A stretch of DNA of 64,000 bases from Escherichia coli. GTDB taxonomy: Bacteria; Pseudomonadota; Gammaproteobacteria; Enterobacterales; Enterobacteriaceae. The position numbers were made by a program, and so were the translations under genes. Under the pieces are notes generated by a model. That model did no database searches and was not told the origin of the DNA. It saw only the letters and a list, made by a program, of their open reading frames with translations. The DNA lies in assembly GCF_003334765.1 (NCBI RefSeq), contig NZ_QOWT01000022.1. One strand, written 5' to 3'. Each line of letters starts with the position of its first letter. Position 1 is the stretch's first letter. This document shows, in pieces, positions 1 through 38,024 of this stretch.

Positions 1-555
1 GCCGCCTTTCAGGACGCCAGTATGCTGATGCGCATCAACCACAATCCCGTTAGAGCTCATCGCTCCACCGCCCTGGGTAACGCCACCATTGATCACCACT
101 TCGCTGTTAATACGCGTGCGGTCAGCCTCCAGCATAAACTCACTGGTTTTCAGGGTGATATTGTCAGCGGCCTCAATGACCATTGATTTGATGCCCCTGA
201 CATACCAGCGCCCGGTGGCGGGTTCGTATTCAAACCAGCCGCCGTCAGGATGTTCTGTCACGCAGGCGTCCGCCGACGTCGAAGGTGGCGCGAACTGATT
301 CGAATAGATGGCGGGTAACGCAAAGGCGGTTTCCAGATTGCCGCCCAGACTCAGCAGCACCACCTGCTCACCTTCCGATGGTCGCCACCATGTGCGGGCA
401 TTACCCGCGCGCAGCGTCAGCCAGTTAATCCAGTTGGTTTCAAGGTCGCCCGTTTTCACCCGACAAAGCCAGTTTTCCCGGTCCACTTCGGTGACTACAC
501 CTATGCGGATCAGATTGGTGATAAGGCGCATGATTTCGGTTAGTTGTGCGTTCAT
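1..555 (-). CDS. Phage baseplate assembly protein V (gpV-like), N-terminal ~185 codons; 3' end lies beyond the window start
   Basis: Reverse-strand translation from ATG at 555-553 reads MNAQLTEIMRLITNLIRIGVVTEVDRENWLCRVKTGDLETNWINWLTLRAGNARTWWRPSEGEQVV..., typical of P2 gpV; absent from the ORF track because it has no stop in the window. Confidence 0.8.
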   Translation of the reverse strand, partial: MNAQLTEIMRLITNLIRIGVVTEVDRENWLCRVKTGDLETNWINWLTLRAGNARTWWRPSEGEQVVLLSLGGNLETAFALPAIYSNQFAPPSTSADACVTEHPDGGWFEYEPATGRWYVRGIKSMVIEAADNITLKTSEFMLEADRTRINSEVVINGGVTQGGGAMSSNGIVVDAHQHTGVLKGG

Positions 556-658
556 AGATATATGATGACAGCTGAAAACTTGTTTATAACTTCTTGCAAA
601 TTGTGGTATCGATGGTACAAATTGATAAAAGGATAAAAAACAACCAATAGGTGGATAA

Positions 659-1465
659 ATGAGTGTTATGAATCCAATAAGTTCTAATATATTTAATGCT
701 GAATTTTTAAACACCCCGGCAGCGGCACTTGCCGCATGGATTTCCATTATTGGAGCTGTTATAACTTTGGTGACGATAGTTATAAGAGCACTATTCAAAT
801 ATAGAAAATCTCATGATGTAATTTTGAAAAAATCAGGAATACCTGCGTTTATATTGAATTTTTTTCTTATACGAATATCATTAAAAAGGCTGCCTACTAT
901 CACATGGGCTGAAAAATCAATCACGGTTCTCTTTTCACTTCTTTTTTTGTGTGCAATTTATATTTTTGGTCCAGTTTTCATCCAAGCCATTAGAACCCCA
1001 CCAAATAGCACATTGCTTTATTGGATAAAATCCGGTGAATCATTTTATATGTCAAAAAAACTGGCGACTGCAGCTACAATATTAACCACTCCTGATTGGG
1101 AAATATCAAAGGATGATTGCGAAGAGTCATCCTCTGCCAGTACAGAGAAGTACAAATCATTAACTATCGAACATAAAGAAATTCTTTGTAAACTACTAAC
1201 CACTGATGAAGGGAATGCTTACATTGATGAAGAAGTCAAGAATTTCGTTAAAGACAAATTCTTTATCTATTCCTTTGCCCCAACAACCATATTTATTCTA
1301 TTATGGATTTCTTTGGGTTTTATACTGACCATTCACTATTCTAAAAAAGTTAGGAAATATATTCTGACTGAACAAAAAAATGCAATTCATTGGGCATATG
1401 GTGAATTCAAGACAGAAGGAATCTATTCAATATATCAAGAGTTAGAACGTAAGACTCACCATTAA
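659..1465 (+). CDS. Hypothetical polytopic membrane protein (268 aa), AT-rich cargo gene between S and V
   Basis: ORF with GGTGG Shine-Dalgarno 6 nt upstream; several hydrophobic helices; AT-rich; opposite strand to flanking tail genes. Confidence 0.5.
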   Translation: MSVMNPISSNIFNAEFLNTPAAALAAWISIIGAVITLVTIVIRALFKYRKSHDVILKKSGIPAFILNFFLIRISLKRLPTITWAEKSITVLFSLLFLCAIYIFGPVFIQAIRTPPNSTLLYWIKSGESFYMSKKLATAATILTTPDWEISKDDCEESSSASTEKYKSLTIEHKEILCKLLTTDEGNAYIDEEVKNFVKDKFFIYSFAPTTIFILLWISLGFILTIHYSKKVRKYILTEQKNAIHWAYGEFKTEGIYSIYQELERKTHH

Positions 1466-1853
1466 GACCCAACAAACGACGCTCTGCGTAACGCACTTCC
1501 GGTCCTTTGCGGCTGACGCGATCGCGCAGGCCATAATGGTGAACGCGGGCAATGCGCTGCACCTTACCTTCAAACTGCACGCTGGCAGAATCGGCGCTGG
1601 CGGCAGTTTTCAGGTATTTGGTGGTGCGCAGCTTTGCAAACATCTGACGTTTGATGCGGCCTTTTTTACTGCGCGCCGTGACCTTGCGCGGTTCATAACT
1701 GCTGCCATCTGGATTGCGCTGCATCCTGATATTCTGCTGCTGTGTCCGGCGCAGTTCCTGCGCCAGCTGGCGCATCATGCGGCTTCTTGCGACTGGTTCC
1801 AGATTCGCCAGTAAGGCACTAAGCCAGTCGTCCACCTTCTGCAGTTCAGCCAC
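1407..1853 (-). CDS. Phage tail completion / virion morphogenesis protein (gpS-like)
   Basis: 148-aa ORF with the sequence character of the phage virion morphogenesis family; lies between R-like and V as in P2. Confidence 0.7.
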   Translation of the reverse strand: MAELQKVDDWLSALLANLEPVARSRMMRQLAQELRRTQQQNIRMQRNPDGSSYEPRKVTARSKKGRIKRQMFAKLRTTKYLKTAASADSASVQFEGKVQRIARVHHYGLRDRVSRKGPEVRYAERRLLGLNGESYVLTLDILNRFLLS

Positions 1854-2304
1854 GTTTCACCGTCCACATTTCTTCAGGTTCATCGGGTTCTGCTACCGCT
1901 TCAACGCTCGACACACTGCCGTCAGTGCTGACCAGCACACGTTCCGTCAGTTGCAGGTTAAGGCTGATATCACAGACATCGTTGCGCAGAATATCCACCT
2001 CAAAGGTAAATAGTTTTTCCCGTAACGCCGGGTTATTGATGGCATCGGGCTGGTTATCCCGCAGCCACAGCAAAACCGGGGCCATCAGCAGATTCTGGTC
2101 GCCGCTGAAATCCTCAATCACCACGTTCAGGGTGTAACCACGCAGCCCTACGAGTTCACTAAAGGCAGTATCTTTCACCTGATGGAGCCGGACCTGAACC
2201 AGGAAATTTACGGCCTGCCGGAATATCTGTCCGCCATTCCGTCCGCCTTGCTGAACGAGTCCGCTACGCTGTTCCGGCGTAAATACTACATCAATGGCAG
2301 TCAT
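1846..2304 (-). CDS. Phage tail completion protein R-like; N-terminal portion probably not native (antisense to portal-derived sequence)
   Basis: 152-aa ORF; its stop overlaps the S start by 8 nt; its first ~40 codons overlap the portal fragment on the other strand. Confidence 0.5.
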   Translation of the reverse strand: MTAIDVVFTPEQRSGLVQQGGRNGGQIFRQAVNFLVQVRLHQVKDTAFSELVGLRGYTLNVVIEDFSGDQNLLMAPVLLWLRDNQPDAINNPALREKLFTFEVDILRNDVCDISLNLQLTERVLVSTDGSVSSVEAVAEPDEPEEMWTVKRG

Positions 2305-2712
2305 GCAGGGTTCATCATGTATATGACCGACGCCGCGCAGAACCAGGAGGACGTGAACAACATCCGCCAGGCCATGAAAAGCGCTAAAGGACCGGGCAAC
2401 TTCCGCAACCTGTTTATGTATTCACCCAACGGCAAAAAGGACGGGATTCAGATAATCCCGCTGTCAGAGGTAGCGGCAAAGGATGAGTTTCTGAACATTA
2501 AGAACGTGAGCCGAGACGACATGATGGCTGCACACCGCGTTCCGCCGCAGATGATGGGGATTATGCCGAGTAATGTTGGGGGATTTGGGGATGTGGAAAA
2601 GGCGAGTAAGGTGTTTGTCCGTAACGAATTGATACCGCTGCAAAAGCGAATTAAAGAAATTAATGAATGGTTGAGTGATGAAATAATTTCTTTCCAACCA
2701 TATGAATTATAA
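2182..2712 (+). pseudogene. Phage portal protein (gpQ-like) C-terminal fragment; 5' boundary uncertain
   Basis: Translation contains RRKYYINGSHAGF and MMAAHRVPPQMMGIMPSNVGGFGDVEKASKVFVRNELIPLQ, which I recognise as portal C-terminal sequence; far too short for a complete portal. Confidence 0.6.
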
Positions 2713-2733
2713 TAAAGTAGGGCAAATAATGCC

Positions 2734-3591
2734 CTACTTTAACCAAATATTATAATCCAATCTTCCTACGTATCTTGAAAAAACAGCCAGAGCAATTGCT
2801 TGCCCTACACTTGTTAATTCAATTCCTTGATAGTTGCTCTTTGAAAATTTTTCTAAAAATGCAGACACATGAGGGGCAACTAACTTAAGATTTGAAATAT
2901 ATGCACTCTTATCTTTTATATCAGTCGGATATTTACTCATAAAATAGTCTTCAACATCCATCCCTAAAAAAGTATTCCATGAACAAGCCCCTGCATATTG
3001 AATGTGATATATCTGGGCTTGAGACAAATTAAACCCATTAGTATACATTGATTCAAAGTTTCTAAAATTGTGCTCCAACAAATCCAATCGAACACCATTA
3101 ACAGGGTCTTTGATCTCAACATTCTTGAGAAGAAAAACTATCGTTATAAGTGATATTTGTTGCTGTGTTAACTTGGGAACGACGGTAACTGCCTCCGTTA
3201 AAACTATATCTCTAAAATCGTCATTGTTATTGGAGACTCGTTCAACTAACAACTGAGAAAGCACATCCATATTAGCTTTCTTTCCCTTCCTGGCTGATGA
3301 CTTTAATGCCTCAGTCAATGTAGCCTGAACGTCCGGATCGCAAAATTTATCAATAATCAATCTATCAACGTTTTTTGTTAAATCCGAAACGACACGCTCT
3401 TCAAAATCTTTTGCATTCTCTTGAGCTGCAGCATAAGCAACATCTTTCAATTTTGGAAACTGATTTTCGAAGAGAATGTTGAATAGTTCTCTAACCTCGG
3501 AAAACGACATCCCTGAAACATTTACATTATTTCCAGCTTGAATTGCATACGAATTATTACCTATTTGTTGCTTTTGCTTATCACTAAACAT
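2734..3591 (-). CDS. Hypothetical protein (285 aa), AT-rich cargo; second gene of a two-gene module
   Basis: Start is preceded by GGAGGA directly after the stop of the upstream small membrane protein gene; no family recognised. Confidence 0.6.
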   Translation of the reverse strand: MFSDKQKQQIGNNSYAIQAGNNVNVSGMSFSEVRELFNILFENQFPKLKDVAYAAAQENAKDFEERVVSDLTKNVDRLIIDKFCDPDVQATLTEALKSSARKGKKANMDVLSQLLVERVSNNNDDFRDIVLTEAVTVVPKLTQQQISLITIVFLLKNVEIKDPVNGVRLDLLEHNFRNFESMYTNGFNLSQAQIYHIQYAGACSWNTFLGMDVEDYFMSKYPTDIKDKSAYISNLKLVAPHVSAFLEKFSKSNYQGIELTSVGQAIALAVFSRYVGRLDYNIWLK

Positions 3592-3600
3592 ATATCCTCC

Positions 3601-3846
3601 TTATTTTTTATCACCTGTATTTATACAATCAATTTTAATATCACCTCTAGCCTGGACAGCAGTTGAATTATCACCAACTGATTGGCTCATAGAATTATAT
3701 TTATTTTTTGTAGTGATAAGTAATCCAGCTAAAGCGCTAACTGCAGCCAAAAATGCAACAATAGAATCAAAACCAGGATCCATATAAAGCCATAATCCTG
3801 CAATCGATGCCAGCATACATGTAATGACTATTGCAAAAATTTTCAT
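3601..3846 (-). CDS. Small membrane protein (81 aa, two predicted TM helices); first gene of the two-gene cargo module
   Basis: ORF with AGGAG upstream; hydrophobic N-terminal two-thirds, polar C-terminal tail. Confidence 0.55.
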   Translation of the reverse strand: MKIFAIVITCMLASIAGLWLYMDPGFDSIVAFLAAVSALAGLLITTKNKYNSMSQSVGDNSTAVQARGDIKIDCINTGDKK

Positions 3847-3914
3847 AAATTCTCCTTCTAATGGAAGTGGTTATACCGAAAACAATTTCCTTTTACAACC
3901 ACGCACAGCGCGCG

Positions 3915-3940
3915 CTCGTATCCCCGCCACGCCTGCCCGC
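3915..3940 (-). other. Candidate cohesive-end (cos)-like sequence of the P2/186 type
   Basis: Minus strand reads GGCAGGCGTGGCGGGGATA; the GGCGTGGCGGGGA core matches the 186/P2 cos overhang as I recall it, and it sits in a GC-rich island between AT-rich cargo. Confidence 0.3.
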
Positions 3941-3983
3941 TTTGTGTAGTGGTTTTCATGCACCTGCATGACATAAGTAAAAG

Positions 3984-4001
3984 CCCGCCAGAACTGGCGG
4001 G
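3984..4001 (-). terminator. Hairpin plus T-run on the minus strand (possible relic phage terminator beside cos)
   Basis: cccgcca-gaac-tggcggg stem-loop followed on the minus strand by CTTTTACTT. Confidence 0.35.
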
Positions 4002-4151
4002 ACTGAGCAAAAACGATCCTTTTGCGATCATTCATTTTCATGCGCTATAGTCATGCAACAAACGCATACGAACCATATGGTTAGATTACTCATCAAGTCA
4101 GATGGATTTTCAGGCAGATTGCCACAGCAATTGTAAAGGAGCGAGATTGAA

Positions 4152-5153
4152 ATGGGTGGAGAGACTTCGGCTATACAACGAGTCGCGGGTAAGATTTCTG
4201 ATGATATTTTCTCAGTGTTCAAATGGGATCGTGCCGCTAGAGCGGACATGAATTGGGATTGTTGCCAAGAGGCTCATTCCAAGAAAACACATCCAAGCGA
4301 TGTTGTATTTTTCTACATAGATCCATATGAGGAGGAAATGGTCTATCTCAACACAGACCTCAAAAGCTATGCAGAAGGTACTATTGGGAAAAAAATAGTC
4401 GAGGGAGCTTTAACATCGCTTGCTTTAGCTACCGAGTGTGCAAATGTCAGTGAAGAATGGCGATTGAAATATGTTCATGATGATTCTTTAGGTTATAACG
4501 TAAGAGGGTTATTATTCTTATATAACCATGATAATTTATATGATAAAGACTTCTATGAGAATATTACAAAAAAATTAGATCACTCATCTATAAATTGCCC
4601 TCCAAACATCAAACTACATTTGCTTGACCCTTATAAAATATCAGATTTGATAAACATATCTTCTGACATAACTAAGTTAATTGGTTCAGGCAAACTTCCT
4701 CAACCTGATAAGTTCACATATTATTATCCAGATCTTTCCCTAACAAGAATAAAGCACCCTATTAATCAGACAACACCTGCAACAATTGAATTATTAACAT
4801 CACCATACATTATAATAAAGCATGAGGCTTTCAGTTGGCTCAGGGATAAAAACCCTGAGGGATATGTTGTTTATTACAATCAACCGGGGGATTCAGTAGA
4901 CGAATTCGTTTACTTCTTTGATATGTTATCAACTTATCAGATATTAACCGAAGGTAAACCAATCGTATTACGCCATTGTCACATTCACCCAAATGAAAAT
5001 GCCATTCATCATTTTGAAAGAGCGAAAAAGAAATACAGCACAGACTGGCTCTTAGGCGAGGATGAAAGACTTTTTCTTAAAATTGACTTCGACAAGACAG
5101 ACAAAATTGTTGTTGAATATAATCTTGAACAAATCGGCATGGAGCAACGATAA
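4152..5153 (+). CDS. Hypothetical protein (333 aa), gene 1 of a three-gene cargo cassette; possible PD-(D/E)xK-like motif
   Basis: AGGAG upstream; AT-rich; FFYIDPYEEEMVYLNTDLK resembles a hhhD...(D/E)xK nuclease core; no Walker A. Confidence 0.7.
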   Translation: MGGETSAIQRVAGKISDDIFSVFKWDRAARADMNWDCCQEAHSKKTHPSDVVFFYIDPYEEEMVYLNTDLKSYAEGTIGKKIVEGALTSLALATECANVSEEWRLKYVHDDSLGYNVRGLLFLYNHDNLYDKDFYENITKKLDHSSINCPPNIKLHLLDPYKISDLINISSDITKLIGSGKLPQPDKFTYYYPDLSLTRIKHPINQTTPATIELLTSPYIIIKHEAFSWLRDKNPEGYVVYYNQPGDSVDEFVYFFDMLSTYQILTEGKPIVLRHCHIHPNENAIHHFERAKKKYSTDWLLGEDERLFLKIDFDKTDKIVVEYNLEQIGMEQR

Positions 5154-6232
5154 TGGCTAAAAAACTATATTTCGCAACTGATAAAAATATTTATGATGCA
5201 TTACATCATAAAAGGATAACCGCTGCAAAGTTGCATGAATTATTGTTGAATCGAGGTGTGTTTTTATCACCAGAACTCGACAAGGAAATACTAATCGAGG
5301 AAATATCCAAACTTCCTCACGGATTTAATGAATTAGAACACATAAAAAAACTGGTCAAAACATATGACCCAAGGGAAAGCACTACTAGTGTGAGCTTCCA
5401 AACCTCAACAAATCAGGCCGAATTAAAAAGTGCTGCTGAAGCACTAAAAAAAACATGCTCCCCTAGTAAAGGTCAAAGCCTGAATATTGTAGCTAAAAAA
5501 GATGGCTCGCTTACAGTAGAATACAAATATGAAGAAATAGACCTGTCTAAAACTGCATTACGTCAGATCGACAAGCGGAATGTTATAATAGAACTTCGCC
5601 CTGGAGCTGACAAAGTTGAAGTACGTATGCCTCAAAACCCCGAGGCAAAAAAAGTTATTGAGAGCTTGCAAAACGAGCTATCTAAAATCAAGTCCGAACC
5701 TATCGAGCGCTTCGAAATATCATTACTAGCAATAACTGATCCTACATTGCGAAGTCAGTTTTTTCAGGAATTAATGAATGGTCTACGCGGTTATGAGACT
5801 GATGACGTAACAAAAGTCGAATTAAATCGCAGTACTGATGCTAGTGAGGATGAAGACAAGGAAGAAACTATTGATACCGGATTTGTTAAGAAAGCCGTCC
5901 TTAATGGTGAAGGGGTAAATAGTTCAGCTATATTTTCTCAACTACATGAGAAAGGTTATTATATCGGGCGTATTGCATGGTCTTCAAAGCCGACAAGTGG
6001 AATTGGAGACAGAATCAACGTCGAAGCATTTTTCAAAGACTCAGAAAAATGCTGTGACTTTGCCTATCAAATTAAAGGTATAAACAATCAAAAAGAAGAC
6101 GGTTTCAATGTAACCATTCGCGCGGCAACGGCACAAGAGAAAAAACATATTAGTGAATTAATTGAGTCCGCCGCTGAAAATGCCTATAATATAATAATAG
6201 GATCAGAGGTGAACGAAGATGAAAAAGGTTAA
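5153..6232 (+). CDS. Hypothetical protein (359 aa), gene 2 of the three-gene cassette
   Basis: ATG overlaps the gene 1 stop (TAATG at 5151-5155); GGAG 8 nt upstream; acidic patch SEDEDKEE; no recognisable family. Confidence 0.7.
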   Translation: MAKKLYFATDKNIYDALHHKRITAAKLHELLLNRGVFLSPELDKEILIEEISKLPHGFNELEHIKKLVKTYDPRESTTSVSFQTSTNQAELKSAAEALKKTCSPSKGQSLNIVAKKDGSLTVEYKYEEIDLSKTALRQIDKRNVIIELRPGADKVEVRMPQNPEAKKVIESLQNELSKIKSEPIERFEISLLAITDPTLRSQFFQELMNGLRGYETDDVTKVELNRSTDASEDEDKEETIDTGFVKKAVLNGEGVNSSAIFSQLHEKGYYIGRIAWSSKPTSGIGDRINVEAFFKDSEKCCDFAYQIKGINNQKEDGFNVTIRAATAQEKKHISELIESAAENAYNIIIGSEVNEDEKG

Positions 6233-6902
6233 ATGGCTTAAGTTAAACATACGGCTTGAGTTTGAAACAGCCGTTAGACGTCTTTCTCTTGATTCTTTTA
6301 CAGAGGATAAAGGGAAAGGGTTCATTTTTGATAAAATACGCCATGATTTTGCAAATGGTCGCTTTGTCGAGCGTATTGTTTATCATGATAAAATATTAAG
6401 CTTTGACGGAAGCGAAACTACCGTTGAAAGAATCGAATATCGCACCACAAATTTTAGCGTGGCTTTAGACTCTCTTCCTGTAATGCAGATTACTAACCCA
6501 CCCAGAACTTTAAAGCCTTTTTCGCAGGCTTTGGTAAAAAATCTTGGCTTAGGTGTTAGTTTGGAAGAAATTGACATAAACCCTATAGACTGGCTTAATG
6601 AAATATCTTCAAGTGTAAATATCAATTTAACACAACTTGATATTTCAAGGGTTAGAGTTTCTGATTACGCCACAGCTAAAATGCAAATAATTGGCAGCAA
6701 TGATCTTAGGAAGTATTATAAAGAAGAATTAGAGGGTAAAAAAATAAGAATTGACAGGCTTGTTTGCTCTGTTAATTCATTAGAATATTCCGGTAAGCTC
6801 AAGATCACCAATAGCGGCCTTGCTTATATTGATGTTAGAAATGAGAATGAGTTTACGAAAATCGTTTTTGATACGTTAAAAAAAGTCACCCTTCAATCAT
6901 AG
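6219..6902 (+). CDS. Hypothetical protein (227 aa), gene 3 of the three-gene cassette
   Basis: Start lies 14 nt inside the end of gene 2 (translational coupling); GAGGTG upstream; no recognisable family. Confidence 0.65.
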   Translation: MKKVKWLKLNIRLEFETAVRRLSLDSFTEDKGKGFIFDKIRHDFANGRFVERIVYHDKILSFDGSETTVERIEYRTTNFSVALDSLPVMQITNPPRTLKPFSQALVKNLGLGVSLEEIDINPIDWLNEISSSVNINLTQLDISRVRVSDYATAKMQIIGSNDLRKYYKEELEGKKIRIDRLVCSVNSLEYSGKLKITNSGLAYIDVRNENEFTKIVFDTLKKVTLQS

Positions 6903-6958
6903 ATGGCTTATAAGGAGTTACTTCACCTAACGCCTCGCCTTACTCGTTGTTCAACCTC

Positions 6959-6989
6959 GTAGGCGTCAGAATCAAGTTCTGACGCCTAC
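6959..6989. terminator. Perfect 13-bp inverted repeat hairpin between the cassette and the convergent DinI-like gene
   Basis: gtaggcgtcagaa-tcaag-ttctgacgcctac; no strong T-run on either side, so function as a terminator is uncertain. Confidence 0.35.
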
Positions 6990-6997
6990 AATGTTTC

Positions 6998-7231
6998 TTA
7001 ATGCAGCCAGCTATCGTCCTCCCAGACCTGCTGCATTATTTCCATCACTCGCTTTTTGTCTTCATCCAGTTTTAACCCGCTCAGCTCAACGCCATTGGCG
7101 CTGCCCTTACGGATACGAATTGCTGTTTTGGGATACAGAGGGCGCAAATTACGGTAAAGCTCGGATTCAAGGGCGTCCAGGGTAGACTGGCTAATCTTCT
7201 GCTCTTTATCGATCATTATTTCAATGCGCAT
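6998..7231 (-). CDS. DinI-like protein (77 aa from the MRIEIM start), resembling the C-terminal part of a 186 Tum-type module
   Basis: MRIEIMIDKEQKISQSTLDALESELYRNLRPLYPKTAIRI...VWEDDSWLH resembles DinI; the track ORF (7303 start) is probably over-extended. Confidence 0.6.
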   Translation of the reverse strand: MRIEIMIDKEQKISQSTLDALESELYRNLRPLYPKTAIRIRKGSANGVELSGLKLDEDKKRVMEIMQQVWEDDSWLH

Positions 7232-7241
7232 AAAAGCCACC

Positions 7242-7430
7242 TCAGCTGATGACATCCATTGAGCGGTTGTATTCGTGGGTTCTGATTTTTGCCATGAGTT
7301 CATCTGTCAGTTCAGAAACCCACTGCAGAGCCAGCCCCTTCTCTTCATCACTACACTCACTAGCCGCTACAAGCTTAAGAAAAAAATCAATGCGCTGGAG
7401 CTTCAAAGACTCCAAAAAATAGTCCTGCAT
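7242..7430 (-). CDS. Small protein (62 aa), first gene after the LexA-controlled promoter; possible Tum-like antirepressor part
   Basis: AGGAGG 4 nt upstream of the ATG; directly downstream of the LexA box; different frame and overlapping the DinI-like ORF. Confidence 0.4.
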   Translation of the reverse strand: MQDYFLESLKLQRIDFFLKLVAASECSDEEKGLALQWVSELTDELMAKIRTHEYNRSMDVIS

Positions 7431-7471
7431 CTTTCCTCCTATGACACCAAAGCAACACTGTATACATAACC

Positions 7472-7489
7472 ACTGTTTGTATTTACAGT
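7472..7489 (-). promoter_or_regulatory. LexA operator (SOS box) overlapping the -10 of a strong promoter for the Tum/DinI-like genes
   Basis: aCTGT-ttgtattt-ACAGta, a perfect CTGT-N8-ACAG; on the minus strand TTTACA (-35) and TATACT (-10) flank it. Confidence 0.7.
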
Positions 7490-7581
7490 ATATAATAATA
7501 TTACTGATGTAAAACGTTTTTTACGTTCATCAGCCTGATATGCCTGGTATTATTAAGAGCACGAATTGTTAACCTGCGTAA

Positions 7582-32203: not shown

Positions 32204-33742
32204 TTATTGCAAATCCGCGTCTTCAAAGCTGAAGCCGGTGTCTGGCATGATCCAAAAACCGGTCAGGTTTTTACTGTGTGCCGACACCAGTTTTTCTACC
32301 ACCAGCGGGATCCACGGCGATTCTTGCCAGATGATATCCTGCGCCGCCTTATATAAGCGGGTCTTTTCCGCCGGATCATTAGTTTTCAGTGCCTGAGCCA
32401 GGAAGTCATCCACCTGTTTATTGCTGTAAAACGCGGTATTAAACAGCGTCGGTGGCCAGTTCTGCGAGGCAAACAGCGGCGATAGTGCCCAGTCCGCTTC
32501 GCCGGTTGAAGCCGACCAGCCAGTGTAGAACATCCGCACGCCGCTCTCTTTTTGCCCTTTACCTTCAACTTCTGCCGCCCGCTGTCCGGCATCCATCGCA
32601 GTCACCTGGGCTTTAATCCCGACCTGCGCTAACTGCTGCTGGGTAAATTGCAGCACTTTCTGCGCGGTGCTGTGGTTATGTGACGACCACAGCGTGGTAC
32701 TGAAACCGTTGGGATATCCCGCCTCTTTCAGTAATTCGCGCGCTTTCACTGGATCGTAAGGCCACGGTTTATAACTTTGCGCGTAGGCGATACTTGGCGG
32801 TACCACACCAGTAGCTGGCGTTGCATAGCCCGCAAAGGCAACTTTCACCAGCGCCGGACGGTTAATGGCGTAATTCAGCGCCTCACGGACCTTCGGGTTA
32901 TCGAACGGCTTTTGCGTCACGTTCATACTGATATAACGCTGCATAATTGACGGACTGGCCATCAACTCGATATTTTTGTTTTTCTCCAGCAGTGTGGCCT
33001 GCTCGTAAGGAATGGGGAAAGCAAACTGCGCTTCACCGGTTTGCAGCATTGCCGCGCGGGTGTTGTTATCCGCCACCGGACGCCAGGTTATGCTGTCCAG
33101 TTTGGGCAATCCTGGCTGCCAGTAACCCGCGAATTTTTTCACCTTCACAAAATCGGTCTGATTCCAGGTATCCAGTTCATACGGTCCGGTTCCCACCGGA
33201 TAAAAACCAATCTCCTTGCCATATTTTTCCAGCGCTGCCGGTGAAATCATCGCGGTCGCCGGATGGGCAAGAATATTAATAAACGCTGAGAACGGCTGTT
33301 TGAGGGTAATCTTTACCGTTGTCGGATCGATCGCTTCCGTTTTAGCAATATTCTTATACAGGTTATAGCGTTTAAGATGATTCGCCGGATCGCTGGCCCG
33401 GTCCAGATTCGCTTTCACCGCCGCGGCGTTGAAATCGGTGCCATCCTGGAATTTAATGCCTTCCCGCAATTTCACGGTGTAAGTAATGCCGTCATCGGAA
33501 ACGGTATAACTCTCCGCCAGCACGTTTTTCAGTTTCATCTCTTTATCCAGACCGAACAGCCCCTGGTAAAACGATTTCGCTACGGCCTGAGATAACGTGT
33601 CATTTGCGTCATACGGATCGAGCGTGGTGAAATTCGATCCTACCGCCACCACCACATCTTTGGCAGCGAATGCACAAGATGCCATCAACGCTGTCGCAAT
33701 GCCCAGCGCCACTAACCCACTACGGTGTACAGCTCTTGCCAT
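32204..33742 (-). CDS. gsiB: Glutathione-binding periplasmic protein GsiB
   Basis: Start at [26 protein letters not shown] (512 aa); track ORF is over-extended. Confidence 0.85.
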
Positions 33743-33761
33743 TTTATTCTCCGCCTGAATG

Positions 33762-35633
33762 TTATCTACGCATGAATGCGTATTCTGATTGTGGTTGTGC
33801 GACGTAATGCCCCGGCCCGACGCATTGCAACGAGACGGCTGCCACCTCTTCGCCACGCAGATGAATATTGCTGGGAAGATCGTCCGACAGCAGTACACGC
33901 TGCGGTCGTTGTCGGGACGGTTCAGCGACCGGAACTGCCGCCAGTAATTTACGCGTATAAGGATGCTGCGGGTTTTCGAAGACCGCGCGCCGTGGACCAA
34001 TTTCAACAATTTGCCCGAGATACATCACCGCCACACGATGACTAATCCGCTCTACCACCGCCATATCGTGGGAGATAAACAGATACGCAATGCCGAAATC
34101 ACGCTGGAGATCGAGCAACAAGTTGATAATCTGCCCGCGAATAGAAACATCCAGCGCCGAAACGGCTTCGTCGGCAATGATCACTTTTGGATTCAATGCC
34201 AACGCGCGAGCAATGCAGATGCGCTGGCGCTGACCGCCGGAAAACTCATGCGGGTAACGCCAGGCATGTTCAGGTAACAGGCCCACGCGCTCCAGCAACC
34301 ACGCAACGCGTGCAGCCGCGTCTTTACCTGGCAATAAACCGTGTACACGCAGCGGTTCGATAATCGAATCACCGATGGTCTGACGTGGGTCCAGCGAAGC
34401 GTAAGGGTCCTGAAAAATAAACTGAATATCCCGGCGTAATGCCTGAAGTTTGCCGGGTGACAAGGTATCGATTCGCTGACCGTTAAAGATAATTTCGCCG
34501 CCCTGCGATTCGACCAGGCGCAGCAACGCCCGCCCGGTAGTGGATTTACCGCTGCCAGACTCGCCCACCAGCGATAGCGTTTCGCCAGGCCAGAGATCAA
34601 AACTGACTTTCTCAACGGCATGCACTTCCCGCGTTACGCGATTCAACAAACCGCTGCGCAAAGGGAAACGGGTGACAAGATTACGCACTCGTAAAACAGG
34701 TTCGCCATCCACCACCGTTTTCTGCTCGATGGGGGGGGCCTGTTTCGCTGGATGTTCAAGCGATATCAACGGGAAACGTCGGGGATAATCTAACCCTTTC
34801 ATCGCACCAAGTTGCGGAACAGCAGCTAACAGCGCACGGGTGTAAGGATGTTGCGGTGCATGAAAAATCTGTTCGACGGTACCCGTTTCCACCGCCTCGC
34901 CCTGATACATCACCAGTACCCGATCGGCAATCTCTGCCACCACGCCCATATCGTGAGTGATAAAGATAACGCCCATCGACATCTCTTTTTGCAATACTTT
35001 GATTAATTGCAGGATCTGCGCCTGAATAGTGACATCCAGCGCGGTGGTTGGCTCATCGGCAATCAGCACCGCCGGGCGGCATGACAGCGCCATCGCAATC
35101 ATCACTCGCTGGCGCATCCCGCCAGAGAGTTGATGCGGATAACGTGAAAGAATGGTTTGTGCCTCAGGAATGCGTACCTGATCCAGCATCCGCTTCGCCT
35201 CGACCATCGCTTCTTCACGACTGGCGTTCTGATGCAGACGAATTGATTCGGCAATCTGTTCACCCACAGTAAATACCGGGTTCAGCGATGTCATCGGCTC
35301 CTGAAATATCATCGCCATATCCGCACCGCGAACATGGCGCATTTGTGCAGCGTTCTGCTCGCTAAGTTCAATCACTTCGCGACTGCGCCGCTGCAACAGC
35401 ATTTTATCGCACTGTACTAAACCGCCCGCCTGTTCCAACAGGCGCATCAATGCCAACGCAGTCACTGACTTACCGGAGCCGGATTCGCCAACAATTGCCA
35501 GCGTCTCACCGCGTTGCAGACTAAAAGAGAGATTGCGGACCGCAGCTATTTTCTGCTGGTCCTGCATAAAGGCAATATTCAGATTTTCAACCGCCAGCAC
35601 ATTACCGGCATCAAGTTCATCACTGTGTGGCAA
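33762..35633 (-). CDS. gsiA: Glutathione ABC transporter ATPase GsiA (two ABC domains), probable TTG start
   Basis: Two Walker A motifs (GESGSGKS); N-terminus [14 protein letters not shown] implies a TTG start at 35633. Confidence 0.85.
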
Positions 35634-36585
35634 CGGTGTCCCCTTTTTCACGGTAGATACCGGTGGTTGGCGTATCGCCTGCGTAGCCCCAGGCGCGATA
35701 CATTCCTTCGGTGTTAAACGGTAGCGCGACATTCCCTTCATGGTCGATAGCGATTAAGCCACCGCTACCGCCAAGCGCAGGGAGTTTTTCCATTACTACC
35801 CGCTCGCAGGCTTCCGCGAGACTTAATCCGCCGTAATCCATTAACGCGGCGATGTCATATGCCGCCAGCGCGCGGATGAAGACTTCGCCCGTGCCGGTAC
35901 AAGAAACCGCCACACTGGCGTTATTGGCGTAGCATCCGGCACCCACTAAGGGACTATCGCCAACTCGTCCGGGTAATTTATTGGTCATTCCGCCTGTGGA
36001 CGTGGCTGCCGCCAAATTGCCGTCTAAATCCAACGCCACGGCCCCCACGGTGCCCATTTTCTGTTTTTCATCCAGTGGCGCACCGCTATGGTCGAGGACG
36101 GTTGCCCCTTCCTTGCGCGCTGCCAGTAGTTGTTCATAACGCAAAGGCGTGGAGAAAATCTCCGGCGAGACGCGCTCCATGCCACGAGCAAACGCAAAAT
36201 TTTCTGCCCCTTCGCCAATCATCATCACATGCGGGCTTTGCTCCATCACCAGCCGGGCGGCAAGAACCGGATTACGCAGATGACTAACGCCCGCCACCGC
36301 ACCGGCTTTCAGGGTGTTACCATCCATCACACAGGCGTCCAGTTCATGGGTTTCATCACGCGTAAAGACAGCGCCAATTCCGGCGTTAAACAGTGGACAC
36401 TCTTCCAGCAGACGCACCGCTTCCGTCACCACATCCAGCGCACTTTCGCCCGCTTCCAGCATTTTCTGCCCGGTTTCAACAATGGCAGACAACGCCTCGA
36501 TGTAGCGTAATTCCTGTTGCAGACTCATCTGCGCGCGGCTAATTGCACCTGCGCCACCATGAATTGCAATGACTGCTTTGCCCAT
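35620..36585 (-). CDS. iaaA: Isoaspartyl dipeptidase / L-asparaginase IaaA
   Basis: 321-aa Ntn-hydrolase; overlaps the gsiA start. Confidence 0.85.
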
Positions 36586-36788
36586 AGTATTCGTCCATTA
36601 AGGGTGGTTCGCCACTTTTGCTATAAATATCAGAATTTTTATGAATTACTCATTCAATTTTTGAATATAGAAAGATGGATATGGCATGTAAAGGCAGGAC
36701 CCAGCGCTACGCCCGAGGTGGCATACAGTCTGTGGCGTTTTTCTGACATAATAGGCAAATTCGATTTTGCCTCCGCAGGAGTGTTTTC

Positions 36789-38024
36789 ATGGAATTTACC
36801 ACCGGATTGATGTCGCTCGACACCGCGCTTAATGAGATGCTTTCTCGCGTCACCCCACTGACCGCCCAGGAAACGCTGCCACTGGTACAGTGTTTTGGTC
36901 GTATTCTGGCGAGCGATGTCGTTTCGCCGCTTGATGTTCCGGGGTTTGATAACTCCGCAATGGACGGCTACGCGGTGCGTTTAGCCGATATTGCCTCCGG
37001 GCAACCGCTGCCCGTTGCCGGTAAATCCTTTGCCGGTCAGCCATACCATGGTGAATGGCCTGCGGGTACCTGCATTCGTATTATGACCGGTGCGCCGGTG
37101 CCGGAAGGCTGCGAAGCGGTGGTGATGCAGGAGCAGACTGAACAAATGGACAATGGCGTGCGTTTTACTGCTGAAGTGCGTAGCGGGCAAAATATTCGCC
37201 GTCGCGGTGAAGATATCTCTGCAGGTGCGGTTGTTTTCCCGGCGGGAACTCGCCTGACTACCGCAGAGCTGCCAGTAATTGCTTCACTGGGGATTGCCGA
37301 AGTTCCGGTGATTCGTAAAGTGCGTGTAGCGCTTTTTTCTACCGGTGATGAACTCCAGTTGCCCGGTCAGCCGCTGGGCGACGGCCAAATCTACGATACC
37401 AACCGTCTCGCCGTACACCTGATGTTAGAACAGTTGGGATGCGAGGTAATTAACTTAGGGATTATCCGCGACGATCCCCATGCCCTGCGCGCCGCATTTA
37501 TTGAAGCCGACAGCCAGGCGGATGTGGTGATCAGTTCCGGCGGTGTTTCAGTGGGTGAGGCGGATTACACCAAAACGATTCTTGAAGAGCTGGGGGAGAT
37601 CGCCTTCTGGAAGCTGGCGATTAAACCAGGTAAACCGTTCGCGTTCGGTAAACTCAGCAATAGCTGGTTCTGCGGCCTGCCGGGCAACCCGGTTTCAGCG
37701 ACGCTGACCTTCTATCAACTGGTACAGCCTTTGCTGGCAAAACTAAGCGGTAACACCGCCAGCGGCCTGCCCGCGCGCCAGCGCGTACGCACAGCGTCCC
37801 GCCTGAAAAAAACGCCAGGACGTCTTGATTTCCAGCGCGGCGTGCTGCAACGCAACGCCGATGGCGAACTGGAAGTGACGACCACCGGACATCAGGGTTC
37901 ACATATATTTAGCTCCTTTAGCCTCGGCAACTGCTTTATCGTGCTGGAACGCGATCGCGGCAATGTGGAAGTGGGCGAATGGGTGGAAGTAGAACCGTTT
38001 AACGCGTTGTTCGGAGGCCTGTAA
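36789..38024 (+). CDS. moeA: Molybdopterin molybdenumtransferase MoeA
   Basis: 411 aa, recognised. Confidence 0.9.

Follow-up and report, generated by a model that had tools for sequence, protein, structure and literature searches.

Organization of the iaaA–gsiA junction

The window, a stretch of 64,000 nucleotides of Escherichia coli DNA, carries iaaA and gsiA on one strand, and the ORFs of gsiB and gsiC lie downstream of gsiA; the annotated operon is iaaA-gsiABCD. The span 33762-36585 comprises the long gsiA ORF together with iaaA, and the features of the junction are collected in Table 1. Read on the minus strand in the iaaA frame, the junction runs ...cgt gaa aaa ggg gac acc gTT Gcc aca cag TGA, and in the gsiA frame it reads TTG CCA CAC AGT GAT GAA CTT GAT, which corresponds to (M)PHSDELD. 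The TGA of iaaA lies 11 nt downstream of the first base of the gsiA TTG. Counting from this TTG at 35633 to the end of iaaA at 35620 gives 14 nt, as the earlier note had claimed when it placed the gsiA start inside the 3′ end of iaaA.

Table 1. Position of genes, start codons and predicted signals at the iaaA–gsiA junction (window coordinates)
Feature	Position	Strand	Remarks
gsiA CDS	33762..35633	-	TTG 35633 to TAA 33764-33762; 623 aa; glutathione ABC transporter ATPase with two fused ABC domains
gsiA initiation codon TTG	35631..35633	-	sequence, TetRP, cross-genus comparison
Shine-Dalgarno (SD) AAGGGG	35640..35645	-	6-nt spacer ACACCG before the gsiA TTG; anti-SD duplex -7.8 kcal/mol
iaaA CDS	35620..36585	-	ATG 36585, TGA 35622-35620; 321 aa; isoaspartyl dipeptidase / beta-aspartyl-peptidase proenzyme
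iaaA/gsiA overlap, 14 nt	35620..35633	-	sequence and MG1655/RefSeq annotation
Longest ORF containing gsiA	ATG 35741 to TAA 33764-33762	-	659 aa vs 623 aa from TTG
GTG at gsiA codon 12	35598..35600	-	start in the 2006 K-12 annotation (U00096.2), since abandoned
36-codon extension of the longest ORF	35634..35741	-	non-coding in the gsiA frame
AAA, Lys314 of IaaA	35644..35646	-	place of the iaaA stop (TAA/TAG) in other genera
Predicted local hairpin	35634..35662	-	iaaA codons G-I-Y-R paired with gsiA SD and spacer; weak, not conserved
Sigma-70-like promoter match TTTACA-17-TATATT	36664..36692	-	consensus scan only; upstream of iaaA; candidate operon promoter

Both products match their protein families over the full length. 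GsiA aligns with the NCBIfam equivalog NF007613 from residue 1 to 623 over profile positions 1-623 (1376 bits, cut-off 1077), and this model, which is 623 positions long, begins at the residue encoded by the TTG; models of single ABC domains match two stretches of the protein, at about residues 12-277 and 309-591. IaaA aligns over residues 1-321 with positions 1-321 of the equivalog NF007589 (714 bits, cut-off 567), a model that is based on E. coli and so includes the derived KGDTVATQ tail of IaaA discussed below. An Rfam search of window positions 33000-37000 gave no match.

Among the in-frame start-like codons scanned from -123 to +120, the gsiA TTG has the strongest anti-SD pairing (-7.8 kcal/mol), and the runner-up among the ATG, GTG and TTG candidates reaches -3.0 kcal/mol. 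The values at other in-frame codons are -1.5 and +0.2 kcal/mol for two upstream ATGs, -2.3 kcal/mol for a GTG at codon 12 and +0.4 kcal/mol for an ATG at codon 23. The AAGGGG motif, located 6 nt upstream, directs initiation at the UUG, and gsiA, with its SD inside the range of 5-9 nt upstream and no better in-frame candidate, behaves in this respect like other SD-directed UUG starts of E. coli. Since the TTG combines the strongest in-frame SD with a position that is conserved across genera (see below), it is not a chance match.

Reference annotation and published initiation data

The TTG start of gsiA and its overlap with iaaA are already known from the reference annotation and from published initiation profiling. 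In MG1655, gsiA (b0829, formerly yliA; NP_415350.2) is annotated at 867520..869391 with TTG as its first triplet at 867520, and iaaA extends to 867533. U00096.3/NC_000913.3 has the same junction sequence, TTG start, 14-nt overlap and 623-aa product as the window; MG1655 differs nowhere at the junction, and residue 147 of IaaA is P in the window and S in MG1655. Comparison with K-12 GsiA, one of the checks suggested in the earlier note, therefore leads to the identical TTG, and the RefSeq PGAP annotation of other strains places the start at the same codon.

The second suggested check, ribosome profiling, has been published and also favours the TTG. Nakahigashi et al. (2016; PMC4909307) mapped initiating ribosomes by tetracycline-inhibited ribosome profiling (TetRP) and list for yliA, in their Table S2, a new TTG start at U00096.2 position 866743, shifted by -33 from the 2006 start. 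The TetRP depth in three samples was 46.3, 140.5 and 70.6 at the TTG versus 0, 0 and 3.0 at the 2006 start (PMC4909307). The TTG agrees with the 2014 re-annotation, and Table S3 of the same study equates it with U00096.3 position 867520 (PMC4909307). In Table S2 the column “N-peptide found” is empty for yliA, gsiA is absent from the TRAINSPOTTER supplements, and in-vivo Ribo-RET shows no gsiA peak. As there is neither an N-terminal peptide nor a Ribo-RET peak, and INRI-seq gave 0 CPM (see below), direct in-vivo support for the TTG comes from one data set, TetRP. Overall, the sequence, the MG1655 and RefSeq annotation, NF007613 and TetRP agree on what the earlier note had proposed, namely that the GsiA N-terminus is preceded by a TTG start and not by ATG.

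Conservation of the non-ATG start

We compared the junction DNA of 15 loci besides the window, namely MG1655, two other Escherichia lineages, Citrobacter werkmanii, Salmonella enterica (Heidelberg and arizonae), S. bongori, Klebsiella pneumoniae, a K. michiganensis-like contig, an Enterobacter-like genome, Leclercia, Enterobacter sp. Bisph1, one genome assembly and two metagenome or read-assembly contigs. With the window included, the homologous gsiA codon is TTG or GTG in 15 of the 16 loci, which represent at least six genera. In these loci an SD precedes the codon by 5-8 nt and the N-terminus is of the MPHS.E.D type; the SD found at the homologous place in the relatives is TAAGGAG, AAGGGAG or TAAGGGGG. 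The remaining locus, that of Enterobacter sp. Bisph1, has an ATG at nearly the same place, and its GsiA N-terminus is diverged and two residues shorter. In Salmonella, Klebsiella, the Enterobacter-like genome and Leclercia the gene order is the same as here, with the divergent moeA followed by iaaA-gsiA-gsiB, and gsiA starts, as here, at the homologous non-ATG codon (GTG or TTG). GsiA proteins from JGI whose first residue is written as L or V are likewise consistent with a TTG or GTG start. This conservation of a non-ATG start across genera, as read from the aligned junctions, is an addition beyond the existing annotation.

Within E. coli, the 501-nt junction region was found in all complete genomes (5426/5426), and for a 61-mer centred on the TTG, 5130 E. 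coli records showed 100% identity along the aligned stretch. When the TTG of the 61-mer was replaced by GTG or ATG, no E. coli record matched at >=99%, and the two variant strains that we inspected had kept the TTG. Many of the database gsiA proteins used for comparison are split or shortened gene calls, for example ORFs of 173-306 plus about 320-450 aa, which suggests frameshifts or assembly errors in the records rather than biology.

Origin of the iaaA/gsiA overlap

Unlike the start of gsiA, the end of iaaA differs among genera. In every locus with a preserved iaaA 3′ end other than those of Escherichia and C. werkmanii, nine in all, ...GIYRE is followed directly by a stop codon: Salmonella (including a remnant in arizonae), Klebsiella, two Enterobacter-type loci, Leclercia and two others. 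The stop is TAA, or TAG in K. pneumoniae, and it usually coincides with the first bases of the gsiA SD (gaaTAAGGAG), so that the genes do not overlap. In Salmonella, Klebsiella, the Enterobacter-like genome and Leclercia, the iaaA stop thus lies inside or just before the SD and the two genes are apart, whereas E. coli has AAA at this place and an IaaA tail of eight residues. AAA is the codon of all three Escherichia lineages and also of C. werkmanii. The IaaA tail beginning with this codon, KGDTVATQ(R), passes through the SD and the start codon of gsiA and comprises eight residues in E. coli and nine in C. werkmanii; the TGA that ends it is formed by gsiA codons 4-5 in E. coli or 5-6 in Citrobacter.

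Klebsiella, Enterobacter and Leclercia were taken as outgroups in the enterobacterial phylogeny. Because these outgroups and also Salmonella have the stop, the distribution of this codon shows the overlap to be derived by loss of the iaaA stop codon. The TAA contained in the gsiA SD (gaaTAAGGAG) changed to AAA, after which IaaA reads through the SD and start of gsiA up to the TGA. The tail of IaaA, eight residues long in E. coli and nine in C. werkmanii, is accordingly a by-product of reading through the ribosome-binding site of gsiA. E. coli and C. werkmanii share the spacer GAC/GAT ACC G, which suggests one origin of the stop loss rather than two. In S. arizonae, S. bongori (a MAG) and GCA_045622145, iaaA is deleted between moeA and gsiA, with the gsiA SD and start kept; the remnant in S. 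arizonae ends in ...GTGIYRE-TAA directly before the gsiA SD.

The origin of the overlap by stop loss is, like the cross-genus conservation of the start, an addition beyond the known annotation. Taken together, we consider it very probable that gsiA is translated from the UUG at 35633-35631 under control of the AAGGGG SD, that this yields the 623-aa product, and that the start has come to lie inside iaaA through an ancestral stop loss.

Does the overlap couple translation of the two genes?

Classical coupled overlaps in enterobacterial operons have the form ATGA or TGATG, for example in trpE-trpD and trpB-trpA. The iaaA-gsiA junction resembles these in that the two genes share a strand and an annotated operon, the stop is a few nt from the start and the SD is located inside the upstream CDS, with the coupling itself being putative; it differs from them in its overlap of 14 nt instead of 1 or 4 and in its UUG start. 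A stop codon close to an SD-preceded start is an arrangement known in general to allow re-initiation, and terminating iaaA ribosomes are released 11 nt from such a start. The translational coupling which the earlier note read from the overlap is plausible, and we regard it as about evenly balanced. Ribosomes that finish iaaA may help initiation at gsiA by melting a weak hairpin that occludes the SD; alternatively, they may re-initiate 11-14 nt upstream of their stop.

The alternative is that the overlap does not matter for expression: gsiA would initiate independently, driven by its own SD, and the 14-nt overlap would be a neutral by-product of the stop loss. We give this view a substantial weight that stays somewhat short of an even chance. 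It is favoured by the strong and correctly spaced SD, and by the fact that the same start and SD serve genomes in which iaaA is deleted or ends before the SD. However, initiation data obtained on the isolated gene point in the other direction. INRI-seq, a cell-free translation of isolated -30..+150 fragments without the upstream gene, detected the starts of gsiB, gsiC and gsiD, whereas the gsiA fragment gave 0 CPM in five of five replicates and no alternative site, with the RNA present (PMC9825163); in vivo, the TTG is occupied according to TetRP. As INRI-seq misses about 30% of annotated starts, its negative result for gsiA is weak evidence either way.

Predicted RNA structure can be read on both sides as well. 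At gsiA the region -30..+15 folds with an MFE of -9.7 kcal/mol, more stably than any other of the five operon starts, and in this fold the SD is paired with iaaA codons, which speaks against an independent initiation. Yet the predicted structure around the ribosome-binding site is weak and not significant, the wider 110-nt fold at the gsiA start lacking significance against shuffled sequences (z = -1.37), and it is not conserved even within Escherichia: sequence variation within E. coli and in other Escherichia and Citrobacter disrupts both the local hairpin at the SD and a stem of longer range. Because the fold is not significant and the stems are broken by natural variants, we keep an RNA-structural basis of coupling only as a weak hypothesis. 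Regarding transcription, a consensus scan revealed no promoter-like site between the match upstream of iaaA (Table 1) and the gsiA start, and the terminator-like matches that a sequence scan found inside iaaA and gsiA are without a continuous T-run tail.

Coupling could also be part of a wider scenario. Among the 16 loci, TTG and GTG have been exchanged for each other repeatedly, with ATG in only one, and a conserved weak non-AUG start would keep synthesis of the ATPase low. The non-ATG start might thus have been selected for a low level of the ATPase, and the stop loss of the Escherichia type might have made gsiA initiation depend on iaaA-translating ribosomes, a combination that we find conceivable but rather unlikely. 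Such a dependence would explain why an initiation signal is seen in vivo and none on the isolated fragment in vitro. The iaaA-gsiA junction could offer a convenient natural setting in which to study coupling and the tuning of weak starts in ABC-transporter operons.

The INRI-seq supplements also contain an observation on the upstream gene. The annotated iaaA ATG (window 36571-36585 region; MG1655 866568-866582) is without a peak, at 0/0/0/0/6.4 CPM, and an alternative in-frame ATT is reported 15 nt downstream of the ATG (MG1655 866582).

Alternative start codons of gsiA

Initiation at the GTG of codon 12 (35600) would result in a 612-aa protein and no overlap with iaaA. GTG is a legitimate start codon, and alignment to the structures of Mycobacterium DppD and Rv1281c, which are the nearest ones, there being no solved GsiA structure from which a construct N-terminus could be taken, indicates that the conserved ABC domain starts near residue 9-12, so that the 612-aa form keeps a complete domain. 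Since the ABC fold begins only at about residue 9-12, domain logic cannot choose between the TTG and this GTG, and the choice of the TTG rests on TetRP, the SD and conservation. The TetRP depth is 0/0/3 at the GTG versus 46/140/71 at the TTG (PMC4909307), and the SD pairing of the GTG is poor. Furthermore, codon 12 is GTT or GTA, which are unable to initiate, in Salmonella, Citrobacter and the K. michiganensis-like locus, and residues 2-8 (P-H-S-x-E-x-D), which the shorter form would lack, are conserved as amino acids with synonymous changes at third positions. We reject a start at codon 12 on the grounds of TetRP, the weak SD and the non-start codons in relatives, and consider it highly improbable.

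The longest-ORF call, as the earlier note stated correctly, adds 36 residues that overlap iaaA further, since 108 nt (36 codons) separate the upstream ATG at 35741 from the TTG. The corresponding protein from an upstream ATG (35741 or 35732) would have 659 aa, with its first 36 residues encoded in an alternative frame of iaaA and an overlap of 122 nt. The ATG at 35741 does give the longest ORF, and part of the extension is present in a few automatic calls on short Logan contigs (P0001, P0002 and P0041). Against this, both upstream ATGs are without an SD, the upstream ATG is not conserved, in-frame stops occur at -15, -18, -30 and -51 in four relatives, and the GsiA family model NF007613 begins at the TTG residue. 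TetRP reports the TTG as the only new start, within a 60-nt search range that does not reach the ATG at 35741.

The codon-position pattern points in the same direction. We examined 102 nt of the extension ending at the Glu codon of GIYRE, where 29 of the 41 variable alignment columns fall on the third codon position of iaaA. Between Citrobacter and the window, the iaaA frame has 15 synonymous codon changes and 1 non-synonymous one, the frame of the extension 0 and 15, respectively, and the remaining ten loci show the same pattern; across genera, the substitutions are thus almost all non-synonymous in the extension frame and synonymous in that of iaaA. With this pattern, the in-frame stops and the SD-less ATGs, a coding extension of GsiA is effectively refuted and its probability negligible. 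What the gsiA case chiefly confirms is that choosing the longest ORF would misplace the start at this locus, which in itself matters little.

The surrounding window

The first part of the window (1-15163) represents one end of a P2-family prophage with genes for integrase, replication endonuclease, portal, terminase and capsid. Its junction with the chromosome falls within the 3′ end of rybB, an sRNA gene, and collinearity with MG1655 begins at window position 15164, which corresponds to K-12 position 887,989. The best matches of the prophage, which are 99.9% identical, are found in E. coli Z1322HEC0001 and HSP425. In these strains the match spans about 22.4 kb for a query of 15.4 kb, and they thus carry about 7 kb extra between two aligned pieces.

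At the other end, the last 77 nt (63924-64000) share 100% identity with the right end of IS186 (MG1655 IS186B), which indicates an IS186 insertion in the fiu-ybiX intergenic region, a place where MG1655 is without IS186. Between these mobile elements, positions 15164-63926 are collinear with K-12 MG1655 over 48.7 kb and contain six SNPs, none of them in gsiA. Four are amino-acid changes (GsiD A126T, IaaA S147P, YbiW E184K and Fiu Y521N). Of the other two, one is a synonymous change in ybiO and the second is located 44 nt ahead of the start codon of dps (window 54198).
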